A DNA stretch of 64,000 nucleotides from an uncultured Bacilli bacterium. GTDB taxonomy: Bacteria > Bacillota_I > Bacilli_A > RF39 > UBA660. Below the pieces are notes generated by a model, which saw only the letters and a list, made by a program, of their open reading frames with translations, had not been told where the DNA came from and ran no database searches. The position numbers and the translations under genes are program-made. The stretch is from contig CAKOKN010000005.1 of NCBI GenBank assembly GCA_934091055.1, forward strand, positions 58 through 64,057. Direction: 5' to 3'. This document shows, in pieces, positions 1-22,704 of the stretch; the stretch's first letter is position 1; each line of letters begins with the position of its first letter.

Positions 1-1277
1 CTGATGACGATGAGGCTAAAGCTGGACTTATGTCTAATTTTGCTTTATCAGAGGTTCAATCTCAGGCTATCCTTGATATGAGATTGAAGAGACTTACTGG
101 ACTTGAAAAATCTAAAATTGAAGAAGAGATTGCTGAACTTGAGAAATTAGTTAAGGAATTAGAAGAAATATTAGCTAGTGAAGAGAAGATTCTTGAGGTT
201 ATTAAGACTGAAATGCTTGAAATCAAAGATAAATATGCTGATGAGAGAAGAACACATATTGATATGACTGCTATTGATTATATTGAAGATGAATCTTTAA
301 TTCCTGTTGAGAATGTTGTTATTACTTTAACTAATAAGGGGTATATTAAGAGATTACCTGCTGATACTTATAAAACTCAAAATAGAGGTGGTATGGGTGT
401 TAAAGGTATGGCTACTAATGAAGAGGATTTTGTAGAGCATTTGATTAATGCTACTAGTCATGATTATATTCTTATGTTTACTAATAAGGGAAAGGTATAT
501 AGAATTAAGGGTTATGAGATTCCTGAGTACAGTAGACAATCTAAGGGCTTACCTATTATTAATTTATTATCTTTAGATAAAGATGAAAAGGTTACTTCTT
601 TATTGAAAATATCTAATGATGATGAATACAAATGTTTAGTATTTGCTACTAAAAGCGGTTTAATTAAAAGGACTGATATATCTGAATTTGATAGTATTAG
701 AACTAATGGTAAGAAATTTATTACTTTAAAAGATGATGATGAACTTGTATCTGTTAAAAAGACTACTGGTAATGATGAGATATTGATGGCTTCTTCTAAT
801 GGTAGAATGGTTAGATTTAATGAAAGTGCTGTTAGAATAATGGGTAGAAGTGCTTCTGGTGTTAGAGGTATTAATCTTGATGGTGGTATACTTGTTGGTA
901 TGGAGATTGTTGAACCTAATGAGTATGTACTTGTTATTACTGAAAAGGGTTATGGTAAGAAAACTCCTGTTGATGAATATAGAATTACTAATCGTGGTGG
1001 TAAAGGTGTCAAGACTGTTAATATTACTGAAAAGAATGGCTCTATAGTGGCATTTAAGACAGTTGATGACAGTAAGGATTTAATGATTATTACTGATTCT
1101 GGTATTATTATTAGATTAGCTGTTGATAAGATATCTACGATGAGTAGGGTTACTCAAGGTGTTAAACTTATTAATTTAAAAGAAGATAGTATTGTTAGTT
1201 CTACATCGATTGTTGATAGAGAAGAAGTTAATGAAGATGATATTACTGACGAAAATAGTGAAAAGGAAAGTGAATAG
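1..1277 (+). CDS. gyrA: DNA gyrase subunit A, C-terminal part (5' end outside window)
   Basis: Frame is open from the window edge. The translation shows LKRLTGLE and a coiled segment. It then has repeated beta-pinwheel blades (GYIKR, KGKVYR, SGLIKRT, NGRMVRF, KGYGKKT, SGIIIRL) and an acidic tail, typical of the GyrA CTD. Confidence 0.9.
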   Translation, partial: DDDEAKAGLMSNFALSEVQSQAILDMRLKRLTGLEKSKIEEEIAELEKLVKELEEILASEEKILEVIKTEMLEIKDKYADERRTHIDMTAIDYIEDESLIPVENVVITLTNKGYIKRLPADTYKTQNRGGMGVKGMATNEEDFVEHLINATSHDYILMFTNKGKVYRIKGYEIPEYSRQSKGLPIINLLSLDKDEKVTSLLKISNDDEYKCLVFATKSGLIKRTDISEFDSIRTNGKKFITLKDDDELVSVKKTTGNDEILMASSNGRMVRFNESAVRIMGRSASGVRGINLDGGILVGMEIVEPNEYVLVITEKGYGKKTPVDEYRITNRGGKGVKTVNITEKNGSIVAFKTVDDSKDLMIITDSGIIIRLAVDKISTMSRVTQGVKLINLKEDSIVSSTSIVDREEVNEDDITDENSEKESE

Positions 1278-1429: not shown

Positions 1430-1522
1430 ATAAAATTTTATTAAGAGGTTGTTGATAAACGAAAAATAAAAAAATTATTTAAGGCAAACAAATGTATGCG
1501 TATTCGATAAATAATATAATAC

Positions 1523-1551
1523 TTGCAATTATTACAAATATATTGTATAAT
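1523..1551 (+). promoter_or_regulatory. sigma-A type promoter of the SRP RNA gene
   Basis: TTGCAA (1523-1528), 17-bp spacer, TATAAT (1546-1551), with the TG of an extended -10 element. Confidence 0.6.
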
Positions 1552-1556
1552 GGTAA

Positions 1557-1639
1557 TCGATACAACATTAAACAATGGAACCAAGTCAGGGACGGAAGTC
1601 AGCAGCTTTAACATTAGTTTGATGTGTGTATCTTTTTTT
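1557..1639 (+). ncRNA. ffs: Small (4.5S-type, about 80 nt) signal recognition particle RNA
   Basis: ACCAAGUCAGG-GAC-GGAA-GUC-AGCAGC matches SRP domain IV (E. coli ACCAGGUCAGGUCCGGAAGGAAGCAGC), including the GGAA tetraloop. A long hairpin is closed by GATACA(1559-1564)/TGTATC(1627-1632) and followed by a T-run. Its position upstream of tadA-dnaX-ybaB-recR resembles B. subtilis, where scr lies immediately upstream of dnaX. Confidence 0.85.
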
Positions 1640-1640
1640 A

Positions 1641-1656
1641 TGTTCCACGTGGAACA
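1641..1656. promoter_or_regulatory. parS site 1 (TGTTCCACGTGGAACA)
   Basis: Matches the ParB/Spo0J parS consensus TGTTNCACGTGAAACA. It sits inside a longer palindrome, roughly 1634-1664. Confidence 0.8.
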
Positions 1657-1739
1657 TAAAAAAAATGTTAGATACATATTTATATTTACTGTATTATTTG
1701 TTTTCACATCTTTTTTAATATTACTTAATGATTCTACTA

Positions 1740-1755
1740 TGTTTCACGTGAAACA
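1740..1755. promoter_or_regulatory. parS site 2 (TGTTTCACGTGAAACA)
   Basis: Perfect palindrome matching the parS consensus. Confidence 0.8.
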
Positions 1756-1875
1756 TATATTATAATTGTGTTTAAGTTTATATTATTTATTTAGAATAAT
1801 TTATTTATTGCTTTAATGAGTATATGTAGATTTAATAATATCTTTTCTCGAAATACAGGAATAAATTAATTTTTA

Positions 1876-1891
1876 TGTTCCACGTGAAACA
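1876..1891. promoter_or_regulatory. parS site 3 (TGTTCCACGTGAAACA)
   Basis: Identical to the canonical B. subtilis parS 16-mer. Confidence 0.8.
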
Positions 1892-1997
1892 TAATTAAAC
1901 ATTTTGTATATAATTAGAATTGTTATTGTATTTATAAATATTGTTTTATTAAGGTATATGTGAAATTAAATAATATGTAAATAGTTATAAATATCTA

Positions 1998-2013
1998 TGT
2001 TCCACGTGAAACA
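1998..2013. promoter_or_regulatory. parS site 4 (TGTTCCACGTGAAACA)
   Basis: Identical to the canonical parS 16-mer. The flanks extend the palindrome (atatctatg...catagatat). Confidence 0.8.
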
Positions 2014-2087
2014 TAGATATTATTAAAAATTGTCGCATTTAAAATTTATTTAGTACATCACTCAACGAAATGCTATTAAGTATTTTA

Positions 2088-2103
2088 TGTTCCACGTGGA
2101 ACA
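2088..2103. promoter_or_regulatory. parS site 5 (TGTTCCACGTGGAACA)
   Basis: Perfect palindrome built from two TGTTCCAC half sites. Confidence 0.8.
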
Positions 2104-2208
2104 TAAAGATTTTTATAATACTTTAATGTGTGAGTAATTATGATAATAAATATTTTTTATGTAATTTAACTATTGCATGTTTTTTATTACAATATTACAT
2201 TAATACAA

Positions 2209-2224
2209 TGTTTCACGTGAAACA
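2209..2224. promoter_or_regulatory. parS site 6 (TGTTTCACGTGAAACA)
   Basis: Perfect palindrome; the flanks tacaa/ttgta extend it. Confidence 0.8.
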
Positions 2225-2395
2225 TTGTATTAAAAGCTTTTATACCATAGACATAATTTAATAGGATTGTTAAAAATAATATAATTTGAATTTAATTATT
2301 AGATATATAAAATATCAGTATTTAATATAAATAGTATAATTAAAAAAAATATATTTTATCTTGTTTTTAAGGAGTTAAATACAAACTTAATTGTA

Positions 2396-2411
2396 TGTTC
2401 CACGTGGAACA
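2396..2411. promoter_or_regulatory. parS site 7 (TGTTCCACGTGGAACA)
   Basis: Perfect palindrome matching the parS consensus. Confidence 0.8.
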
Positions 2412-2473
2412 TACTTTTTTTATAATTCTAAATTTTAGAGTGTATGTAAAAATAATTTAATTAAATTATCTTA

Positions 2474-2489
2474 TGTTTCACGTGAAACA
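2474..2489. promoter_or_regulatory. parS site 8 (TGTTTCACGTGAAACA)
   Basis: Perfect palindrome matching the parS consensus. Confidence 0.8.
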
Positions 2490-2510
2490 TAATACGAAAT
2501 TTTAAAAATA

Positions 2511-2640
2511 AATTTTGAAGGTGTCAAAAGTATATTTTAAAGGTTTCAAAAATATGTTTTGAGGTATCGAAAAAGTAATTTTGAAAAAATGCTCGAAAAT
2601 ACATTTTTGAGGTGTGAAAAAACGTGTTTTGAATTAATAA
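2511..2640 (+). repeat. Degenerate 22-26 bp tandem (iteron-like) array, 5-6 units, core TTTTGA-GGTNTC-(G)AAAA
   Basis: The units read ttttgaaggtgtcaaaagtat, attttaaaggtttcaaaaatatg, ttttgaggtatcgaaaaagtaa, ttttgaaaaaatgctcgaaaatacat, ttttgaggtgtgaaaaaacgtg and ttttgaatt. All are in the same orientation, between parS 8 and parS 9. Confidence 0.7.
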
Positions 2641-2650
2641 TGTATTTATA

Positions 2651-2666
2651 TGTTTCACGTGGAACA
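2651..2666. promoter_or_regulatory. parS site 9 (TGTTTCACGTGGAACA)
   Basis: Reverse orientation of the canonical 16-mer; about 70 bp upstream of the tadA start. Confidence 0.8.
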
Positions 2667-2734
2667 TATAAAATATTTTGAGATTTAACAATTATATATT
2701 AGAATGAAATTAGATTTGAAGTTGGAGTGATATT

Positions 2735-3160
2735 GTGAAAAATAATTTTATGAAAATTGCTTTACAAGAAGCTGAAATAGGTTTTGACAATCAGGAGATA
2801 CCAGTTGGATGTGTTGTTGTTAAAGATGGTGTTGTACTATCTTCTTCTCATAATAGAAAAGAAGATAGTAAGAATGCAATTATGCATGCTGAAATTATAG
2901 CTATTGAGGAAGCTTGTCATATACTTAATAGTTGGAGACTTGATGAATGCGAATTATATGTTACATTAGAGCCTTGTATGATGTGTATGGGAGCGATCTT
3001 AGAAAGTAGAATAAAAAAAGTGTATTTTGGAACAAAAAACAATAGCGAACAAATGTACGATTTTGATAGAATTTCAAAATGTGTTGATATGTACAATTTA
3101 AAAGATAGTGAATGTTCTAAAATTTTATCTGATTTTTTTAAAAATAAACGAAAAAATTGA
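2735..3160 (+). CDS. tadA: tRNA-specific adenosine deaminase
   Basis: CMP/dCMP deaminase zinc motifs HAE and PCxMC. GTG start after the RBS ggagtga. Lies upstream of dnaX, as in Bacillus. Confidence 0.85.
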   Translation: MKNNFMKIALQEAEIGFDNQEIPVGCVVVKDGVVLSSSHNRKEDSKNAIMHAEIIAIEEACHILNSWRLDECELYVTLEPCMMCMGAILESRIKKVYFGTKNNSEQMYDFDRISKCVDMYNLKDSECSKILSDFFKNKRKN

Positions 3161-9874: not shown

Positions 9875-12800
9875 ATGAAGTTTTTTGATAATTTATTTGA
9901 TGTTAACAATAGAGATGAACAATTAGTTACTGGTTTAAATAAAGAACTTAATAGTGTTTATACTTATGACTATTTTAACAAATATAATAATAATATTTTA
10001 CTTGTTACTAATTCTTTATATGAGGCTAATGATTTATATAATAGATTATCTAATTATACTGATAGAGTACTATTTTTTCCTATGGATGATTTTATGACAA
10101 GTGAGGCTTCAATTATTAGTCCAGAACTTATGATTGAGAGATTAAATACTTTGAATAAACTTGTTAATAATGATAATTATATTGTTGTAACTAATTTAAT
10201 GGGTCTACTTAGATATCTTCCTAATAAGTCTTTATATAAGAGGAAAATTATTAATTTAAATGTTAATGAAGATGTAAATAGAGAAGTGTTAATTAACAAT
10301 TTAATTGACTTAGGTTATGATAGAGTTCCACTTGTTACTAAGACTGGAGAGGTGGCTATTAGAGGATATGTAATTGATATATTTCCTATGGAAACTGATA
10401 GTCCTATTAGGATAGAATTCTGGGGAGATACTATTGATAGTATTAAATATTTTGATTTGGATAGTCAGATTTCTAATGAGAGTATTGATACTATTTCTAT
10501 ATATCCTTTTACAGAATTTTTACTTGATAATAAGTTAGATGTTGACAGTAAAATGTGTAAGCAGAAATATTTACCACATTATTCTAAAGATATTAATGCT
10601 ATATGGAATTATTTAGATAACTGTACTCTTATATATTATGATTATAACCAAATTATATCGGCTTATAGATTACTTAGAGAGAGTATTATTAATTATGATA
10701 AAGAAATAAAAGATTCTATTAAAACTGATTATATGTTTGATATTTCTGATGTTAAATATAATAATATTATTTATATGTTAGAGTTTGATAATATTCTTGA
10801 TTTAAATATTAAATGTAAAAATAATTATTTATCTAATAACATTGATAATTATCATGGTGATTTTGAAAAGATTAAAACAAGTCTTTTTAAATATATAACT
10901 GGTGGTAAGACTGTTATTATGTGTATCGATAATAAAGACGTTGCTAAGAGAGTTATCACTTATTTAGATATTATGGATGATGTTGTGCTAACTAGAGAGA
11001 ATGAAATTATTAAGAATAAGATTAATATTATTAATAAATATATTATAAGTGGATTTATATATGATAATTATGTTGTTATTTCTTCAAATGATTTATTTGG
11101 CAAGATAGAAGAAAAGAAGAAAGTTAAAAATAAGTATAAAGTTGGTACTAAGATTAGTAATATTAATAACTTAGAGAAGGGTGATTATATTGTTCATATT
11201 GATCATGGTATTGGACAATATGTTGAATTATGTACTTTATCTAAGAATGGTTTGAAAAAGGATTATATTAAACTTTTATATGCTGATGGTGATGTTTTAT
11301 ATTTACCAGTAGAAAAAATTGATAAAATTACTAAGTTTACTGGTAGAGAAGGAGCTATTGTAAGACTTGATAAATTGGGTACTGATTCTTGGAATAAGAA
11401 GAAGGCTAGAGTTAGAAGTAAACTGGAGAATATTGCGGGTGATTTGATTAGAGTGTCTGCTGAAAGGGAAAATTCTAAAGGTTTTGCTTTTAGTCCTGAT
11501 GATGAAGAACAAATATTATTTGAAAGTAAATTTAAATATACTGCTACTGCTGATCAGGAAAGGGCTATAGGTATTATTAAGCATGAAATGGAAAAGGATA
11601 AACCTATGGATATGCTCTTATGTGGCGATGTTGGATATGGTAAAACAGAAGTAGCTTTTAGGGCAATATTTAAAGCTGTTAATGATGGTAAACAAGTTGC
11701 TTATTTATGTCCTACTACTATTCTTTCTAGTCAGCAATATAATTCTGCACTAGATAGATTTGCTGATTTTCCGATTAATATTGCATTACTTAATAGGTTT
11801 ACTTCTGTTAAAGAGCAAAATAGAATTTTTAAGAACTTAAAAGAAGGTAAAATTGATATTTTATTTGGTACTCATAAACTTCTTAATGATAAAGTGGATT
11901 TTAAAGATTTAGGATTACTTATTATTGATGAAGAACAAAGATTTGGCGTTGTACATAAAGAGAAAGTTAAGAAATATAAGAGTAGTATTGATGTTTTAAC
12001 TCTTAGTGCTACTCCTATTCCTAGAACTCTTCAAATGTCTATGTCTGGTATTAGAGGGCTTGCTCTTATTGAAACTCCTCCAGAGAAGCGAAGACCAATA
12101 CAGACTTATGTAATGCCTGAAAGCACTAATATTATTAAAGATGCTATTTATAAAGAATTATCTAGAAATGGTCAAGTATTTATGCTTTATAATAGTGTTG
12201 AGAAAATAGATAATAAACTTGAAGAGATACATAAATTGGTACCAGAAGCTAATATTAGATATGCTCATGGTAGAATGACTAAGGTTGAACTTGAGAATAT
12301 TATGATTGATTTTACTAATCATAAATTTGATATATTACTTTGTACAACAATTATTGAAACTGGTATTGATATTCCTAATGTTAATACTTTGATTGTTTTA
12401 GATGCTGATAATTTTGGTTTATCACAGTTATATCAAATTAGGGGTAGAATTGGTCGTAGTGATAGAATTGGTTATGCTTATCTTATGTATAATGGCAGAA
12501 AAGAACTTAATGATTTGGCAGTTAAAAGACTTAATACTATAAAAGAGTTTACATCTCTTGGTAGTGGTTTTAAGATAGCTATGAGAGATTTATCTATTAG
12601 AGGAGCAGGAGATATTCTTGGTAGTGAACAATCTGGTTTTATTGACAGTATAGGTATTGATTTGTATTTGAAGATGTTAAAAGAAGAAGTTGATAAACTT
12701 AAGGGTATTAAGATAGAAGAAGAAAAAGAAGAAAGTTCTAAACCTCTTATTGAAGTTGAAACGCATATTTCTAATGAATATGCTCCTGATGATGAAATTA

Positions 12801-13276: not shown

Positions 13277-13807
13277 ATGAAAACAACTGGAGTTATAAGA
13301 AGAATTGATGAACTTGGTAGAATTGTTATACCAAAAGAAATTAGAAAGAGTTTAAGAATTAAAAATGGTGAAAGTTTAGAAGTTTATTTGGATGGTGATA
13401 GTATTATATTAAAGAAATTTTCACAAATTGAAAGTTTAGAGAGTATTTCTGTTGACTATGTAGAGGCATTTAATCAGATTATTAAACATAATATTATTGT
13501 TACTGATAGAGATAAAGTGGTTGCTGTTAGTGGTCCTTTAAAGAAGAAGTATTTGGGTAAAAATATTAATGAATTTACTGAACGCTCTATTGAAAGAAGA
13601 GATTCTTTTTCTGAAAAGCAAAAGAAGGAGTTTAAAATAATTGAGGATGAAGAAGATGTTGGTTATTATACTTTTGCTTCGATTGTTAATAATGGTGATG
13701 CTATTGGTAGTGTAATATTAATATCTTTGGATACTCCTTTATCTGATACTGAAGATAAACTGGCTATTGTTTTATCTAATTTGCTTAGTAAACAATTTAT
13801 TGATTAA
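13277..13807 (+). CDS. spoVT: Stage V sporulation protein T (AbrB-type N-terminus plus GAF-like domain)
   Basis: SpoVT/AbrB swapped-hairpin motif TGVIRRIDELGRIVIPKEIR. About 176 aa and follows mfd, as in Bacillus. Confidence 0.85.
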   Translation: MKTTGVIRRIDELGRIVIPKEIRKSLRIKNGESLEVYLDGDSIILKKFSQIESLESISVDYVEAFNQIIKHNIIVTDRDKVVAVSGPLKKKYLGKNINEFTERSIERRDSFSEKQKKEFKIIEDEEDVGYYTFASIVNNGDAIGSVILISLDTPLSDTEDKLAIVLSNLLSKQFID

Positions 13808-16609: not shown

Positions 16610-16820
16610 TGTAAAGCGAAGAAGGAAAGAGTAATAGTAATATTTATAGAGAGTCTATGTTTGGTGGAAATAGATAAGAAAAGCTATTATAAATGGTTCT
16701 GGAGCAGTTATATCTAATAGGTATAAACGGTTGTTACGTTATAACTTAATGAGTGTATATATTATAAAATAAGGTGGTACCGCGGAATGTTTTCGTCCTT
16801 TGGTTAGCCTTATTTTTTTA
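16610..16820 (+). promoter_or_regulatory. T-box riboswitch leader (probable Met specifier AUG at 16693-16695)
   Basis: Stem I elements are present: the GA/K-turn region, the AGAGAG bay at about 16650, and the GGTGGAAA distal loop. There is an F-box-like ACGGTTGTTAC. The canonical T-box AAGGTGGTACCGCG lies at 16771-16784, followed by a terminator helix and T-run ending about 16819. Downstream is dut-metG. Confidence 0.8.
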
Positions 16821-20766: not shown

Positions 20767-21693
20767 ATGAAAAAAATATTACTATTGACATTTATAATTA
20801 TATTAATTCCATTTACTATTGTTAATTTTTTTAAAGTTGATCAAAAAGAAGAAATAAAACTTAATTATGAATCTAATACTATTATTAGGGTGAAGAGAAT
20901 GGCTTCTGGGAAAATAGTTGGTGTTCCTTTTGAACAATATATAGTCGGTGTATTAGCAGGAGAAATGCCTATATATTTTAATTTAGAAGCGCTTAAGGCA
21001 CAAGCAGTGGCTGCGAGAAGTTATGCACTAAAAAGAATGGAATATAATAAAGATAATGATTTTGATGTTGTTGACTCTATTTTAAATCAGGTTTATTTAG
21101 ATGATAATTATTTAAAAGATGCTTGGGGAGATGATTATGTTAACAATATTAATAAATTAAGAGAGGCTGTTAATGCAACTAGTATGGAATACTTAGATTA
21201 TAATGGTGATGTAATAGATGCCTTGTTTTTTTCTACTAGTAATGGTTATACAGAAACTTCTTCTTTAGTTTTTAATATTGACCTACCATATTTACAAAGT
21301 GTCTCTTCATCGTGGGATGAAAAAACTAGTTCTGCTTTTAAATCAACGACTTCTATGCCATTAAGAGACTTTTATAATAAATTAAATATTGATTATTCTG
21401 ATTATTTTGATGTAAAAATATTAGAAAAGAGTTCTACTAATAGAATAATAAAACTTAGTATTAATGGAAAAGAGTTTTTAGGTAGAGATTTATATAATAC
21501 TTTAGGTCTTAAATCTACTGATTTTTCACTAAAGAAAGATGGTGATAAAGTTATTATAAATACTATAGGATATGGTCACGGAGTTGGTATGAGCCAATAT
21601 GGAGCAGAAGGAATGGCCGAAGAAGGGTACTCTTATATTGATATATTGAAACACTACTATGTTGGTACTAATATTAAAAAAATTGAAAATTAA
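20767..21693 (+). CDS. spoIID: Stage II sporulation protein D (SpoIID/LytB lytic transglycosylase)
   Basis: Motifs EQYIVGVLAGEMP, ALKAQAVAARSYAL and HGVGMSQYGA. Confidence 0.85.
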   Translation: MKKILLLTFIIILIPFTIVNFFKVDQKEEIKLNYESNTIIRVKRMASGKIVGVPFEQYIVGVLAGEMPIYFNLEALKAQAVAARSYALKRMEYNKDNDFDVVDSILNQVYLDDNYLKDAWGDDYVNNINKLREAVNATSMEYLDYNGDVIDALFFSTSNGYTETSSLVFNIDLPYLQSVSSSWDEKTSSAFKSTTSMPLRDFYNKLNIDYSDYFDVKILEKSSTNRIIKLSINGKEFLGRDLYNTLGLKSTDFSLKKDGDKVIINTIGYGHGVGMSQYGAEGMAEEGYSYIDILKHYYVGTNIKKIEN

Positions 21694-21739
21694 GTATATA
21701 TTTTTTAATTTAGGAAACAACTATATTAGAGGTGAAAAT

Positions 21740-22384
21740 ATGAATAGTAAAAGAATTAAATCATTTATGGTTCCTATAGTTTATGGAGGATGTGTACTTG
21801 TATTTTTATTTAGCATTTATTTTGCTGGAAGATTTGCAAGAAGAGTTTTGTTTACTGACGACTCTAACTTGAAATACGTTGATGGTGAGATTACTAAAGA
21901 AGGAGGTAATAGTGAGTTACCTGTTGTTAGTACTTCCAGTCAAATAGTAAGACCTTATCTAGATAATACAGTTTCTGTAGTTAAATCTTTTTATGATTAT
22001 AAAGGAGATTCTACTACTCAGGAAGAGTCTATAATTGTGTATGATGGTACATATATGCAAAACTCTGGTGTTGATTATTCAGGAGATAATATCTTTGATG
22101 TAATTAGTATACTAGATGGAACTGTTATTTCTGTAGAAGACAATGAGTTATTAGGTACTACTGTTGAAATAAGACACAGTAATGATTTGATATCTGTATA
22201 TCAAAGTTTATCTGATGTTATTGTAAAAAAAGATGATTTGGTAATTCAAGGTCAAATTATTGCTAAAAGTGGCACTTCTAATATAAATAAAGAATTAGAA
22301 AATCATTTACATTTTGAATTGTATTACAAGGGTAAAATTGTTAATCCTGAAGAATACTATAATAAATCTGTAGATGAGTTATAG
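21740..22384 (+). CDS. spoIIQ: SpoIIQ-like membrane protein with a degenerate LytM/M23 domain
   Basis: Start MNSKRIK after gaggtg, with an N-terminal TM. VVKSFYDY...TVEIRHSNDLISVYQSLSDV...HLHFELY parallels my recollection of B. subtilis SpoIIQ. The first zinc-ligand position reads QNSGVD, so the His is absent. Confidence 0.65.
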   Translation: MNSKRIKSFMVPIVYGGCVLVFLFSIYFAGRFARRVLFTDDSNLKYVDGEITKEGGNSELPVVSTSSQIVRPYLDNTVSVVKSFYDYKGDSTTQEESIIVYDGTYMQNSGVDYSGDNIFDVISILDGTVISVEDNELLGTTVEIRHSNDLISVYQSLSDVIVKKDDLVIQGQIIAKSGTSNINKELENHLHFELYYKGKIVNPEEYYNKSVDEL

Positions 22385-22446
22385 GCAGTAATGCCTTTTT
22401 TTACATAATATATTTCTCTCTTAATATAATATACTAGGTGAAATAT

Positions 22447-22704
22447 ATGAATAAAATTATATACAGTAGAGTATTAGATGAGGCAAATTATATAATTGCC
22501 ACTAATAAAACTTTAAGAGAGACTTCCTCAGTATTCTTGGTATCAAAGAGTACAGTTCATAAAGATATGAATGATAGACTAAGAGAAATTGACTATAATT
22601 TGTACAAAAAAGTGTCAAGTATTTTGAAATATCATATTAATATTAAGCATATTAGAGGAGGAGAAGCGACAAAAAGGAAATTTTTGGCGAAAAAGTGTAA
22701 TTAG
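22447..22704 (+). CDS. spoIIID: Sporulation transcriptional regulator SpoIIID
   Basis: VSKSTVHKDMNDRL and HIRGGEATKRKF motifs, nearly as in B. subtilis SpoIIID. Lies upstream of mbl. Confidence 0.9.
   Translation: MNKIIYSRVLDEANYIIATNKTLRETSSVFLVSKSTVHKDMNDRLREIDYNLYKKVSSILKYHINIKHIRGGEATKRKFLAKKCN

Follow-up and report, generated by a model that had tools for sequence, protein, structure and literature searches.

Nine parS sites within 1 kb of the gyrA-tadA spacer: a probable origin-proximal centromere in an uncultured Bacilli bacterium

Introduction

A 64-kb stretch of DNA from an uncultured Bacilli bacterium (positions 58 to 64,057 of contig CAKOKN010000005.1; hereafter the window, numbered from its first letter) carries, in the spacer between gyrA and tadA, nine copies of a 16-bp palindrome of the parS type. 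The locus raises the question of whether this interval is the centromere of the chromosome and, if it is, whether the number of copies has any significance of its own. ParB nucleates at parS, closes into a clamp on binding cytidine triphosphate (CTP), slides onto the flanking DNA and recruits SMC. Studies of this clamp, of SMC loading and of Noc draw on a small number of model species with few or widely scattered parS sites; in the present locus and its relatives, very dense loading arrays occur naturally. An earlier note, made from the sequence of the window alone, had described the nine sites and suggested that so tight an array would behave as a single super-centromere. We have followed up this suggestion by pattern searches, by comparison with other strains, relatives and unrelated genomes, and by a survey of the neighboring genes, and we think it probable that the interval is the main centromere of the chromosome, with nine loading sites for a ParB of the Spo0J type ∼8 kb to the right of oriC.

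Results

We searched the 64-kb window with the pattern TGTTNCACGTGNAACA, allowing mismatches stepwise and taking the chance level from 100 shuffles. Nine matches were found, none with a mismatch and each bordered by A...T (Table 1), which reproduces every coordinate in the earlier note; the start-to-start distances of 99, 136, 122, 90, 121, 187, 78 and 177 bp likewise agree with the range of 78-187 bp given there. By simple arithmetic these spacings are not multiples of ∼10.5 bp, and no helical phasing of the sites is apparent. The nine copies fall into three groups of three, namely TGTTCCACGTGGAACA, TGTTTCACGTGAAACA and a hybrid form. The hybrids are the canonical Bacillus subtilis 16-mer read on either strand, and the other six copies differ from it only at degenerate positions; the presence of canonical copies was thus correctly noted before, although their number is not two but three once strand is ignored. 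All nine sites conform to the 16-bp palindrome TGTTNCACGTGAAACA, the parS consensus as cited in PMC7022226.

No further match to TGTTNCACGTGNAACA was present in the window at up to one mismatch (chance expectation 0.00), and when three mismatches were allowed only three additional matches appeared, all clearly unrelated. With the addition of L131, the oriC-side locus of the same species, the examined DNA extends over 83 kb (-19 kb to +64 kb relative to the array), and the 82 kb of it outside the array hold no parS at up to two mismatches. The earlier note had itself raised the possibility that the motif is a generic palindrome, occurring at comparable density throughout the genome; we found nine sites in 1 kb and none in the other 82 kb. 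Dispersed palindromic repeats of the REP or MITE kind (repetitive extragenic palindromes or miniature inverted-repeat transposable elements) were rejected as a candidate because every copy in the 83 kb lies within one spacer.

The position of the array relative to the origin was read from L131, where a coordinate equals the window position plus 17713. The gene order is dnaA, dnaN, comK, recF, gyrB, gyrA, then the gene for the signal recognition particle (SRP) RNA and the array, followed by tadA, dnaX, ybaB and recR. The L131 locus contains 22 DnaA boxes against 8.4 expected, with seven directly upstream of dnaA (L131 9773-9904) and five between dnaA and dnaN (11373-11464), and from this layout the two clusters flanking dnaA are the predicted bipartite oriC of a Firmicute. 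The array, at L131 19354-20379, starts 7.9 kb to the right of the dnaA-dnaN cluster and therefore has the origin-proximal location expected of parS. The array as oriC itself was also considered and rejected, as the DnaA boxes gather around dnaA and not in the array. The 10 kb upstream of dnaA (L131 1-10000) encode polA, fpg, a nucleotidyltransferase, a glycosyltransferase, an LtaS-like sulfatase and a DUF87 ATPase; parAB, noc and rsmG were not found in these 10 kb. We also observed that the ancestral Firmicute origin cluster, rpmH-rnpA-jag-gidAB-noc-parAB, is missing upstream of dnaA and that comK stands between dnaN and recF.

Variation within the species shows which parts of the array are held constant. 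Ten independent metagenome contigs of the species carry the array with 7-9 sites, and an alignment of the spacers of the strains has 21 variable columns, five of which lie inside parS sites. Four of these five correspond to the two degenerate N positions; the remaining one (window 2005) sits at the edge of a 90-bp deletion in one strain (L004) and looks like an alignment artefact; apart from that column, the 14 specified bases are invariant among the strains. Since substitutions within the sites are confined to the two degenerate positions, the parS sites are under purifying selection. The DNA between the sites is not itself repeated beyond short AT-rich flanks of the sites, with the exception of an unrelated tandem repeat of ∼22 bp between parS 8 and parS 9. 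Hence the proposal in the earlier note that selection acts on the 16-mers rather than on a copied unit holds in this species, where the spacers are unique and all nine sites are perfect.

The array is not confined to the species. Two sets of relatives were compared, one of GTDB species that came out of a pattern scan for pairs of parS sites, the other a sample of 80 gut metagenome loci with 70-100% GyrA identity, which was chosen by GyrA and is not biased towards parS. At least 14 GTDB species share the gyrA-tadA-dnaX-recR synteny at 56-64% GyrA identity, and these 14 relatives (among the matches listed) carry 2-10 parS sites in the gyrA-tadA spacer, the tadA-dnaX spacer or both. Among the metagenome loci, all 29 with a complete spacer have parS, with 1-10 sites each. 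The arrays are thus conserved in position in both sets, the sites are conserved under selection in related genomes as parS should be, and the clade as a whole retains the array, though its copy number is labile.

This lability is the ground for the rival explanation that survives best, which differs from a dense centromere in the significance that it gives to the copies and not in the identity of the sites. According to it, the interval is an ordinary redundant parS cluster in which one or two sites do the work, the extra copies being neutral products that come and go by slippage, tandem duplication and recombination between the 16-20-bp repeats in a tolerant, gene-free spacer. Close relatives do have anywhere from 1 to 10 copies and members of the species itself 7-9, and the deletions seen in strains are exact parS-to-parS units, of 136 bp at 1745-1880 (L006, L010) and of 90 bp at 2006-2095 (L004). 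Four relatives have true tandem arrays, plain repeats with identical flanks, in units of 82 bp (L130), ∼105 bp (L078) and ∼42-44 bp (L047 and L054). Moreover, 47 of the 80 gyrA contigs stop within 1.5 kb of the gyrA stop codon, as expected of a structurally unstable repeat, so that short-read assemblies habitually break in the array, and a single parS suffices in model species (PMC7083940, PMC7022226). Against neutrality stand the nine perfect 16-mers amid unique spacers, which point to old copies maintained by selection, and the independent recurrence of multi-site arrays in many phyla. In addition, B. subtilis ParB-CTP condenses DNA under force in vitro with 7, 13 or 26 parS sites and not with 1, 2 or 4 (PMC8299390), and because this condensation scales with copy number, a natural array of 7-10 sites would lie in the responsive range. 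We regard neutral copies as possible, though on balance unlikely.

The recurrence of such arrays was apparent from a scan of GTDB, one genome per species, for two parS sites 60-90 bp apart. At least 120 species had a match, from Actinomycetota, Bacteroidota, Acidobacteriota, Pseudomonadota, Patescibacteria, Planctomycetota, many Clostridia and others. Among the matches listed, the maximum number of sites per 1.1 kb was two in 34 species, three in 50, four in 13, five in nine, six in three, seven in nine, and eight and ten in one each, which gives at least 86 species with three or more sites and at least 23 with five or more. A density of nine per kb thus stands close to the upper end of the observed range without being unique, and the view that a tight array is exceptional for a chromosome, put forward in the earlier note, does not stand, all the more as intergenic clusters have been described (PMC7083940). 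In the same listed matches, parB lies within the same 8-kb block in 57 of the 106 loci outside the clade; the clade is distinguished by the density of its sites, by their position beside gyrA rather than parB and by the sites for other proteins that share the spacer.

Several of the matches are of interest in their own right. Among metagenome-assembled genomes (MAGs), one of Parcubacteria has 10 parS sites in 0.8 kb, likewise just downstream of gyrA (L053, 7008-7813), one of Moraniibacteriota has 10 in 1.5 kb (L044, 6414-7911) and one of Bacteroidetes has seven with a 99-bp period (L058, 5202-5810). A Lachnospiraceae genome holds seven sites in 340 bp (L071, 1014-1353), and many Collinsella species have three parS sites 39 bp apart (e.g. 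L027, 2083-2176). A MAG labeled Nitrosopumilus, an archaeon, carries four bacterial-type parS sites beside a ParB homologue (L057, 3246-3548), which may reflect a binning error or a transferred element.

A second rival explanation arises from the symmetry of the DNA around the sites. The palindromes extend past the 16-mer by 8, 2, 3, 8, 4, 9, 3, 3 and 6 bp at sites 1 to 9, a mean of 5.1 bp compared with 2.1 bp when flanks of different sites are paired by shuffling, and none of 2000 shuffles reached 5.1. The flanks are specific to each site and show compensatory changes between species: at site 6, the flanks TAATACAA and TTGTATTA on either side of parS in the window correspond to TTAATTATAA and TTATAATTAA in the sister species L139 and L148, and at site 8, TCTTA..TAATA in the window corresponds to TACTA..TAGTA. 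Three of the nine sites are terminator-like on the + strand (2083-2108, 2200-2233 and 2393-2414) against 0.2 expected, and the other six do not fit. These features, together with the lack of a ParB gene seen nearby, would suit palindromes that act mainly as structures, either as terminators or insulators against read-through from the SRP RNA gene into tadA-dnaX or as cruciforms, or that serve as CACGTG operators for a protein other than ParB. A pure hairpin, however, would not fix the sequence, and here 14 specified bases equal the ParB consensus in nine copies and in hundreds of sites in relatives. Most sites also lack a downstream T-run, site 1 is reversed, with its T-run upstream and its A-run downstream, and the same motif lies beside parB in about half of the unrelated genomes (among the matches listed). 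Nor is the extension peculiar to this spacer, since it is weaker but significant in the clade (2.57 versus 1.61 bp) and in other phyla (1.81 versus 0.69 bp), and may instead be a mutational footprint of template switching. We therefore consider it improbable that structure is the main role of the palindromes, and the extension itself may represent either selected hairpins (insulators or cruciforms) or template switching that symmetrizes the flanks of a perfect palindrome.

It is very unlikely that the array arose as an artefact of assembly or belongs to a mobile or plasmid-derived element that inserted beside gyrA: many contigs do end in the array, and one (L179) runs on after gyrA into unrelated DNA, yet the same order and spacing recur in more than 20 metagenomes from different assemblers, on contigs that include some of 200-640 kb, the flanks are core housekeeping genes in a B. 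subtilis-like order, and no integrase, replication or partition genes lie nearby.

The array also marks a break in sequence divergence. Between the lineage of the window (A) and a second lineage (B), nucleotide identity is 89% to the left of the array, through recF-gyrB-gyrA-SRP RNA, and ∼75% to its right, and amino acid identity is 97% for the GyrA C-terminus compared with 49% for TadA, 61% for DnaX and 79% for RecR. Given that divergence jumps at the array and that the 89%-identity block ends exactly at parS 1 (L131 12743-21365 versus L147 and L194), the alignments suggest that the array is a recombination boundary.

Some observations weigh against the interval as the main centromere, or against a special role for its nine copies. 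No parB, noc or smc gene was found within the 83 kb around the array. A six-frame search of the window for the GERR motif gave no ParB-like sequence, tblastn with an approximate B. subtilis Spo0J query gave no match in the window, L001 or L131, and Pfam searches of the scanned open reading frames (ORFs) of the window and of the contig genes detected none of these three genes between -19 kb and +64 kb; the tblastn probe itself works, as it picked up ParB at 57 unrelated loci. The ancestral Firmicute dnaA-parAB-noc cluster (PMC8136486) is broken up here, and the cognate proteins are for this reason unconfirmed. Finally, some close relatives (L189, L190, L192-194 and L206) have only one or two sites in spacers of similar length. 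Since such relatives exist and a single parS is enough in the model species, the special effect of a super-centromere is not required to account for the nine copies. The identity of the site sequence, its conservation and the selection on it nevertheless make binding by ParB by far the most likely reading of these sites.

The spacer contains more than parS. Two candidate Noc-binding sites (NBS) lie ∼250 bp upstream of the array, near 1378 and 1415, and are the only ones in the window; the 14-bp NBS core ATTTCCCGGGAAAT occurs exactly at 1378-1391 and with one mismatch at 1415-1428 (for the B. subtilis NBS sequence, see PMC7383237). Two more exact NBS are found in the oriC region, one between polA and fpg and one where recF meets gyrB (L131 1573 and 14498), so that in the 83 kb all four NBS are located no further than 21 kb from oriC and the following 61 kb are devoid of them, a distribution that looks clustered. 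Of the 14 GTDB relatives, 8 have exact NBS in the spacer that holds their parS array. In L130 (900-1600), seven 82-bp tandem units hold one NBS and one parS each, in 1:1 alternation; in L116 (860-1575) there are three NBS-parS pairs 8-10 bp apart; L013 (2960-3225) and L092 (2850-3000) have three or four NBS each, L078 (2328-2390) has two, and L028, L061 and L128 have one each. Most of the metagenome relatives have an NBS ∼105 bp past the gyrA stop. Outside the clade, an NBS was present in one of 106 parS loci among the matches listed.

Sister lineages whose GyrA C-terminus is ∼97% identical to that of the window show a second association. In these, a DnaA box, either TTATCAACA or TTATCCACA, follows 78 of 240 parS sites at +4 or +5 bp, always on one side and in one orientation; the window shows this at none of its nine sites, and other phyla at 4 of 371 (among the matches listed). 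We found no description in the literature of parS and Noc sites co-located in this way or of a composite of parS and DnaA box. The strictness of these composites in some species, with NBS and parS in one 82-bp unit, NBS and parS 8-10 bp apart, and parS followed by a DnaA box, leads us to put forward, tentatively, that in this clade chromosome maintenance may have a dedicated hub in the gyrA-tadA(-dnaX) spacer, one that evolves fast and arrays together sites for up to three proteins acting at the origin, ParB, Noc and DnaA. If this were so, it would imply direct coupling at one locus, for example a tethering of the centromere to the membrane by Noc, or cross-talk between ParB/ParA and DnaA. The extension of the parS palindromes, specific to each site and kept by compensatory changes, belongs to the same tentative reading and hints either that hairpins or cruciforms at parS matter or that mutagenesis by template switching shapes centromeres.

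From the gyrA stop (1277) to the tadA start (2735) the spacer measures 1457 bp and has 21% G+C, compared with 26.6% for the window. Its other features are collected in Table 1. The flanks had been named as gyrA and tadA, and Pfam annotation of identical contigs bears this out; the description of the interval as non-coding is correct as to protein ORFs and fails for the small SRP RNA gene that lies within it. The terminal T7 run of this gene (1633-1639) directly abuts parS 1, which is followed by an A8 run, and the junction between the end of the RNA gene and parS 1, gtgtgtatcttttttta followed by TGTT, is kept in L139, L148, L202, L203 and L204. Further genes or RNAs hidden in the spacer were rejected, as the SRP RNA alone reached the Rfam threshold and no ORF is credible; the sub-threshold Rfam matches are microRNA and small RNA models that fall on the palindromes, and the ORFs are short and of low complexity. 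Promoters are not enriched in the spacer, with 27 promoter-like sites against 22 ± 5 expected. The 22-24-bp repeat before parS 9 is species-specific and conserved among strains, and may form bent DNA or an operator array for tadA-dnaX; as a conserved element it was rejected, its motif being missing from the 14 GTDB relatives.

Table 1. Sites and genes in and around the gyrA-tadA spacer. Positions refer to the window unless a locus is named.
Feature	Position	Strand	Description
gyrA, 3' part (C-terminal 415 amino acids)	30-1277	+	ORF; PF00521/PF03989 on identical contigs; left border
NBS palindrome TATTTCCCGGGAAATA	1377-1392	none	Exact B. subtilis NBS; invariant among strains
Second NBS-like palindrome TATTTCCCAGGAAATA	1414-1429	none	One mismatch; 37 bp from the first
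DnaA-box variant TTATCAACA, single	1450-1458	-	L131 19163-19171; isolated, may be chance
Promoter-like TTGCAA-17-TATAAT	1523-1551	+	Consensus match only; probably drives the SRP RNA gene
Small SRP (4.5S-type) RNA gene	1549-1647	+	RF00169, 56.1 bits (gathering score 40)
parS 1	1641-1656	none	TGTTCCACGTGGAACA; palindrome extended 8 bp each side (T7A / TA7)
parS 2	1740-1755	none	TGTTTCACGTGAAACA
parS 3	1876-1891	none	TGTTCCACGTGAAACA, B. subtilis canonical
parS 4	1998-2013	none	TGTTCCACGTGAAACA, within 32-bp perfect palindrome AATATCTA..TAGATATT
parS 5	2088-2103	none	TGTTCCACGTGGAACA; terminator-like on + strand
parS 6	2209-2224	none	TGTTTCACGTGAAACA, within 34-bp perfect palindrome TTAATACAA..TTGTATTAA; terminator-like on + strand
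parS 7	2396-2411	none	TGTTCCACGTGGAACA, then T7; terminator-like
parS 8	2474-2489	none	TGTTTCACGTGAAACA
Repeat, ∼6 copies of 22-24 bp (TTTTGA-GGTnTC-AAAA)	2504-2640	+	Phased A/T tracts; between parS 8 and parS 9
parS 9	2651-2666	none	TGTTTCACGTGGAACA; 12 bp upstream of tadA promoter-like site
Promoter-like TTGAGA-16-TAGAAT	2678-2705	+	Consensus match only; upstream of tadA
tadA-type tRNA adenosine deaminase	2735-3160	+	Pfam annotation of identical contigs; right border; then dnaX, ybaB, recR
Extended palindromes	1633-1664, 1990-2021, 2200-2233, 2645-2672; L214 6552-7815; L023 3470-3700
parS-DnaA box composites	L147 6786-6815, 6914-6943, 7069-7098, 7232-7261, 7479-7508		Also in L145, L149, L152, L172, L174, L200, L201, L209

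As for the host, a TadA identical to that of the window occurs on at least 22 human-gut metagenome contigs, from the Hadza and other cohorts, the longest of 221.8 kb. Pfam annotation of the window identified the sporulation genes spoVT, spoIID and spoIIID and a gene for an M23 peptidase, as well as mreB (13277-13807 and 20767-22704). As SpoVT, SpoIID, SpoIIID, the M23 peptidase and MreB are encoded there, the host is probably rod-shaped and able to form spores; its genome is small and AT-rich. Upstream of a dUTPase-like ORF and the gene for methionyl-tRNA synthetase, at 16610-16803, is a T-box leader (RF00230, 104 bits).

Discussion

The interval between gyrA and tadA is best read as a chromosomal parS centromere of a known kind, unusually dense, free of protein genes and conserved, in which the co-residence of candidate Noc sites is new. 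As the main centromere of the chromosome, which we hold to be its probable role, it would work in the manner implied by the biochemistry of ParB, with CTP-bound dimers nucleating at each 16-mer, closing into clamps and sliding outward. Nine entry points in 1 kb would feed one partition complex that covers oriC, 8 kb away, and this complex would recruit SMC and interact with ParA. A stretch of ∼1 kb without protein genes would keep the sites clear of coding constraints, and because the SRP RNA terminator lies on one side of it and the promoter-like site of tadA on the other, with three of its sites terminator-like, collisions with RNA polymerase would probably be fewer. The many copies would confer redundancy and, as a dosage effect, a higher loading flux, and their number would change as sites recombine with one another and, in relatives, as units are duplicated in tandem. 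The NBS in the same spacer would load Noc, the Firmicute-specific ParB paralogue, and so tether origin-proximal DNA to the membrane.

These loci may be of use beyond the present species. The occurrence of 1-10 copies in near-identical backgrounds amounts to a titration series for ParB loading flux, for the size of the partition complex and for SMC recruitment. The finding that tight parS arrays are common across phyla, among them Patescibacteria, Bacteroidota and Collinsella, corrects the impression of sparse parS sites given by model organisms. The co-located sites suggest a testable coupling of segregation, nucleoid occlusion or membrane tethering, and control of initiation, and the interest of the locus would be greater if the coupling of parS, NBS and DnaA box, or the palindrome extension, proved functional.

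Among known systems, B. subtilis with its parS/Spo0J pair is the closest, sharing the identical 16-bp sequence, a Firmicute host, origin-proximal sites and the gene order dnaA-dnaN-recF-gyrB-gyrA ... tadA-dnaX-ybaB-recR. In that species parS sites are scattered through a large domain around the origin, most of them inside genes. Approximately ten of them are bound by Spo0J (PMC7022226), whereas here nine sites stand in 1 kb without protein genes and parB does not adjoin dnaA. The NBS of B. subtilis has the same 14-bp core, ATTTCCCGGGAAAT (16-mer TATTTCCCGGGAAATA), but is scattered around the chromosome except near the terminus (PMC8429893, PMC7383237), whereas here and in relatives it lies in the parS spacer. 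Clusters of DnaA boxes close to oriC modulate initiation in B. subtilis and interact genetically with spo0J (PMC3245932); the sister lineages, and not the window, similarly accumulate boxes in this origin-proximal spacer, although theirs are fixed 4-5 bp after parS and in one orientation.

Corynebacterium glutamicum has a comparable redundant cluster of about ten consensus sites near oriC, in which ten parS occupy 35 kb, nine lie between genes and any single one is enough, a multiplicity thought to add robustness and ParB mass (PMC7083940). It belongs to another phylum and its density is ∼30-fold lower (35 kb compared with 1 kb), and its sites form three separate nucleation zones or subclusters, whereas all sites here fall within one ParB footprint. 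Caulobacter crescentus, with at least five parS near ori (PMC5815017), and Pseudomonas aeruginosa, with four (PMC4368675), also group several sites near ori in one ParB zone of ∼10-50 kb, but these are fewer, extend over several kb and lie partly inside genes.

The likeness to a plasmid centromere that the earlier note had drawn is weak on closer comparison. Iterated plasmid centromeres do concentrate many sites for a ParB-family protein in a short non-coding stretch that acts as one centromere. That of the F plasmid, sopC, consists of tandem 43-bp units. Such centromeres are regular tandem arrays of a plasmid-specific sequence, whereas the array here is irregular, and an iterated centromere of the plasmid type was rejected because the spacing varies from 78 to 187 bp and no tandem repeat covers the sites. 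Within the clade, a plasmid-like tandem layout is seen only in some relatives (L130, L078, L047 and L054), and the array of the window is built from the universal chromosomal parS, set in unique spacers.

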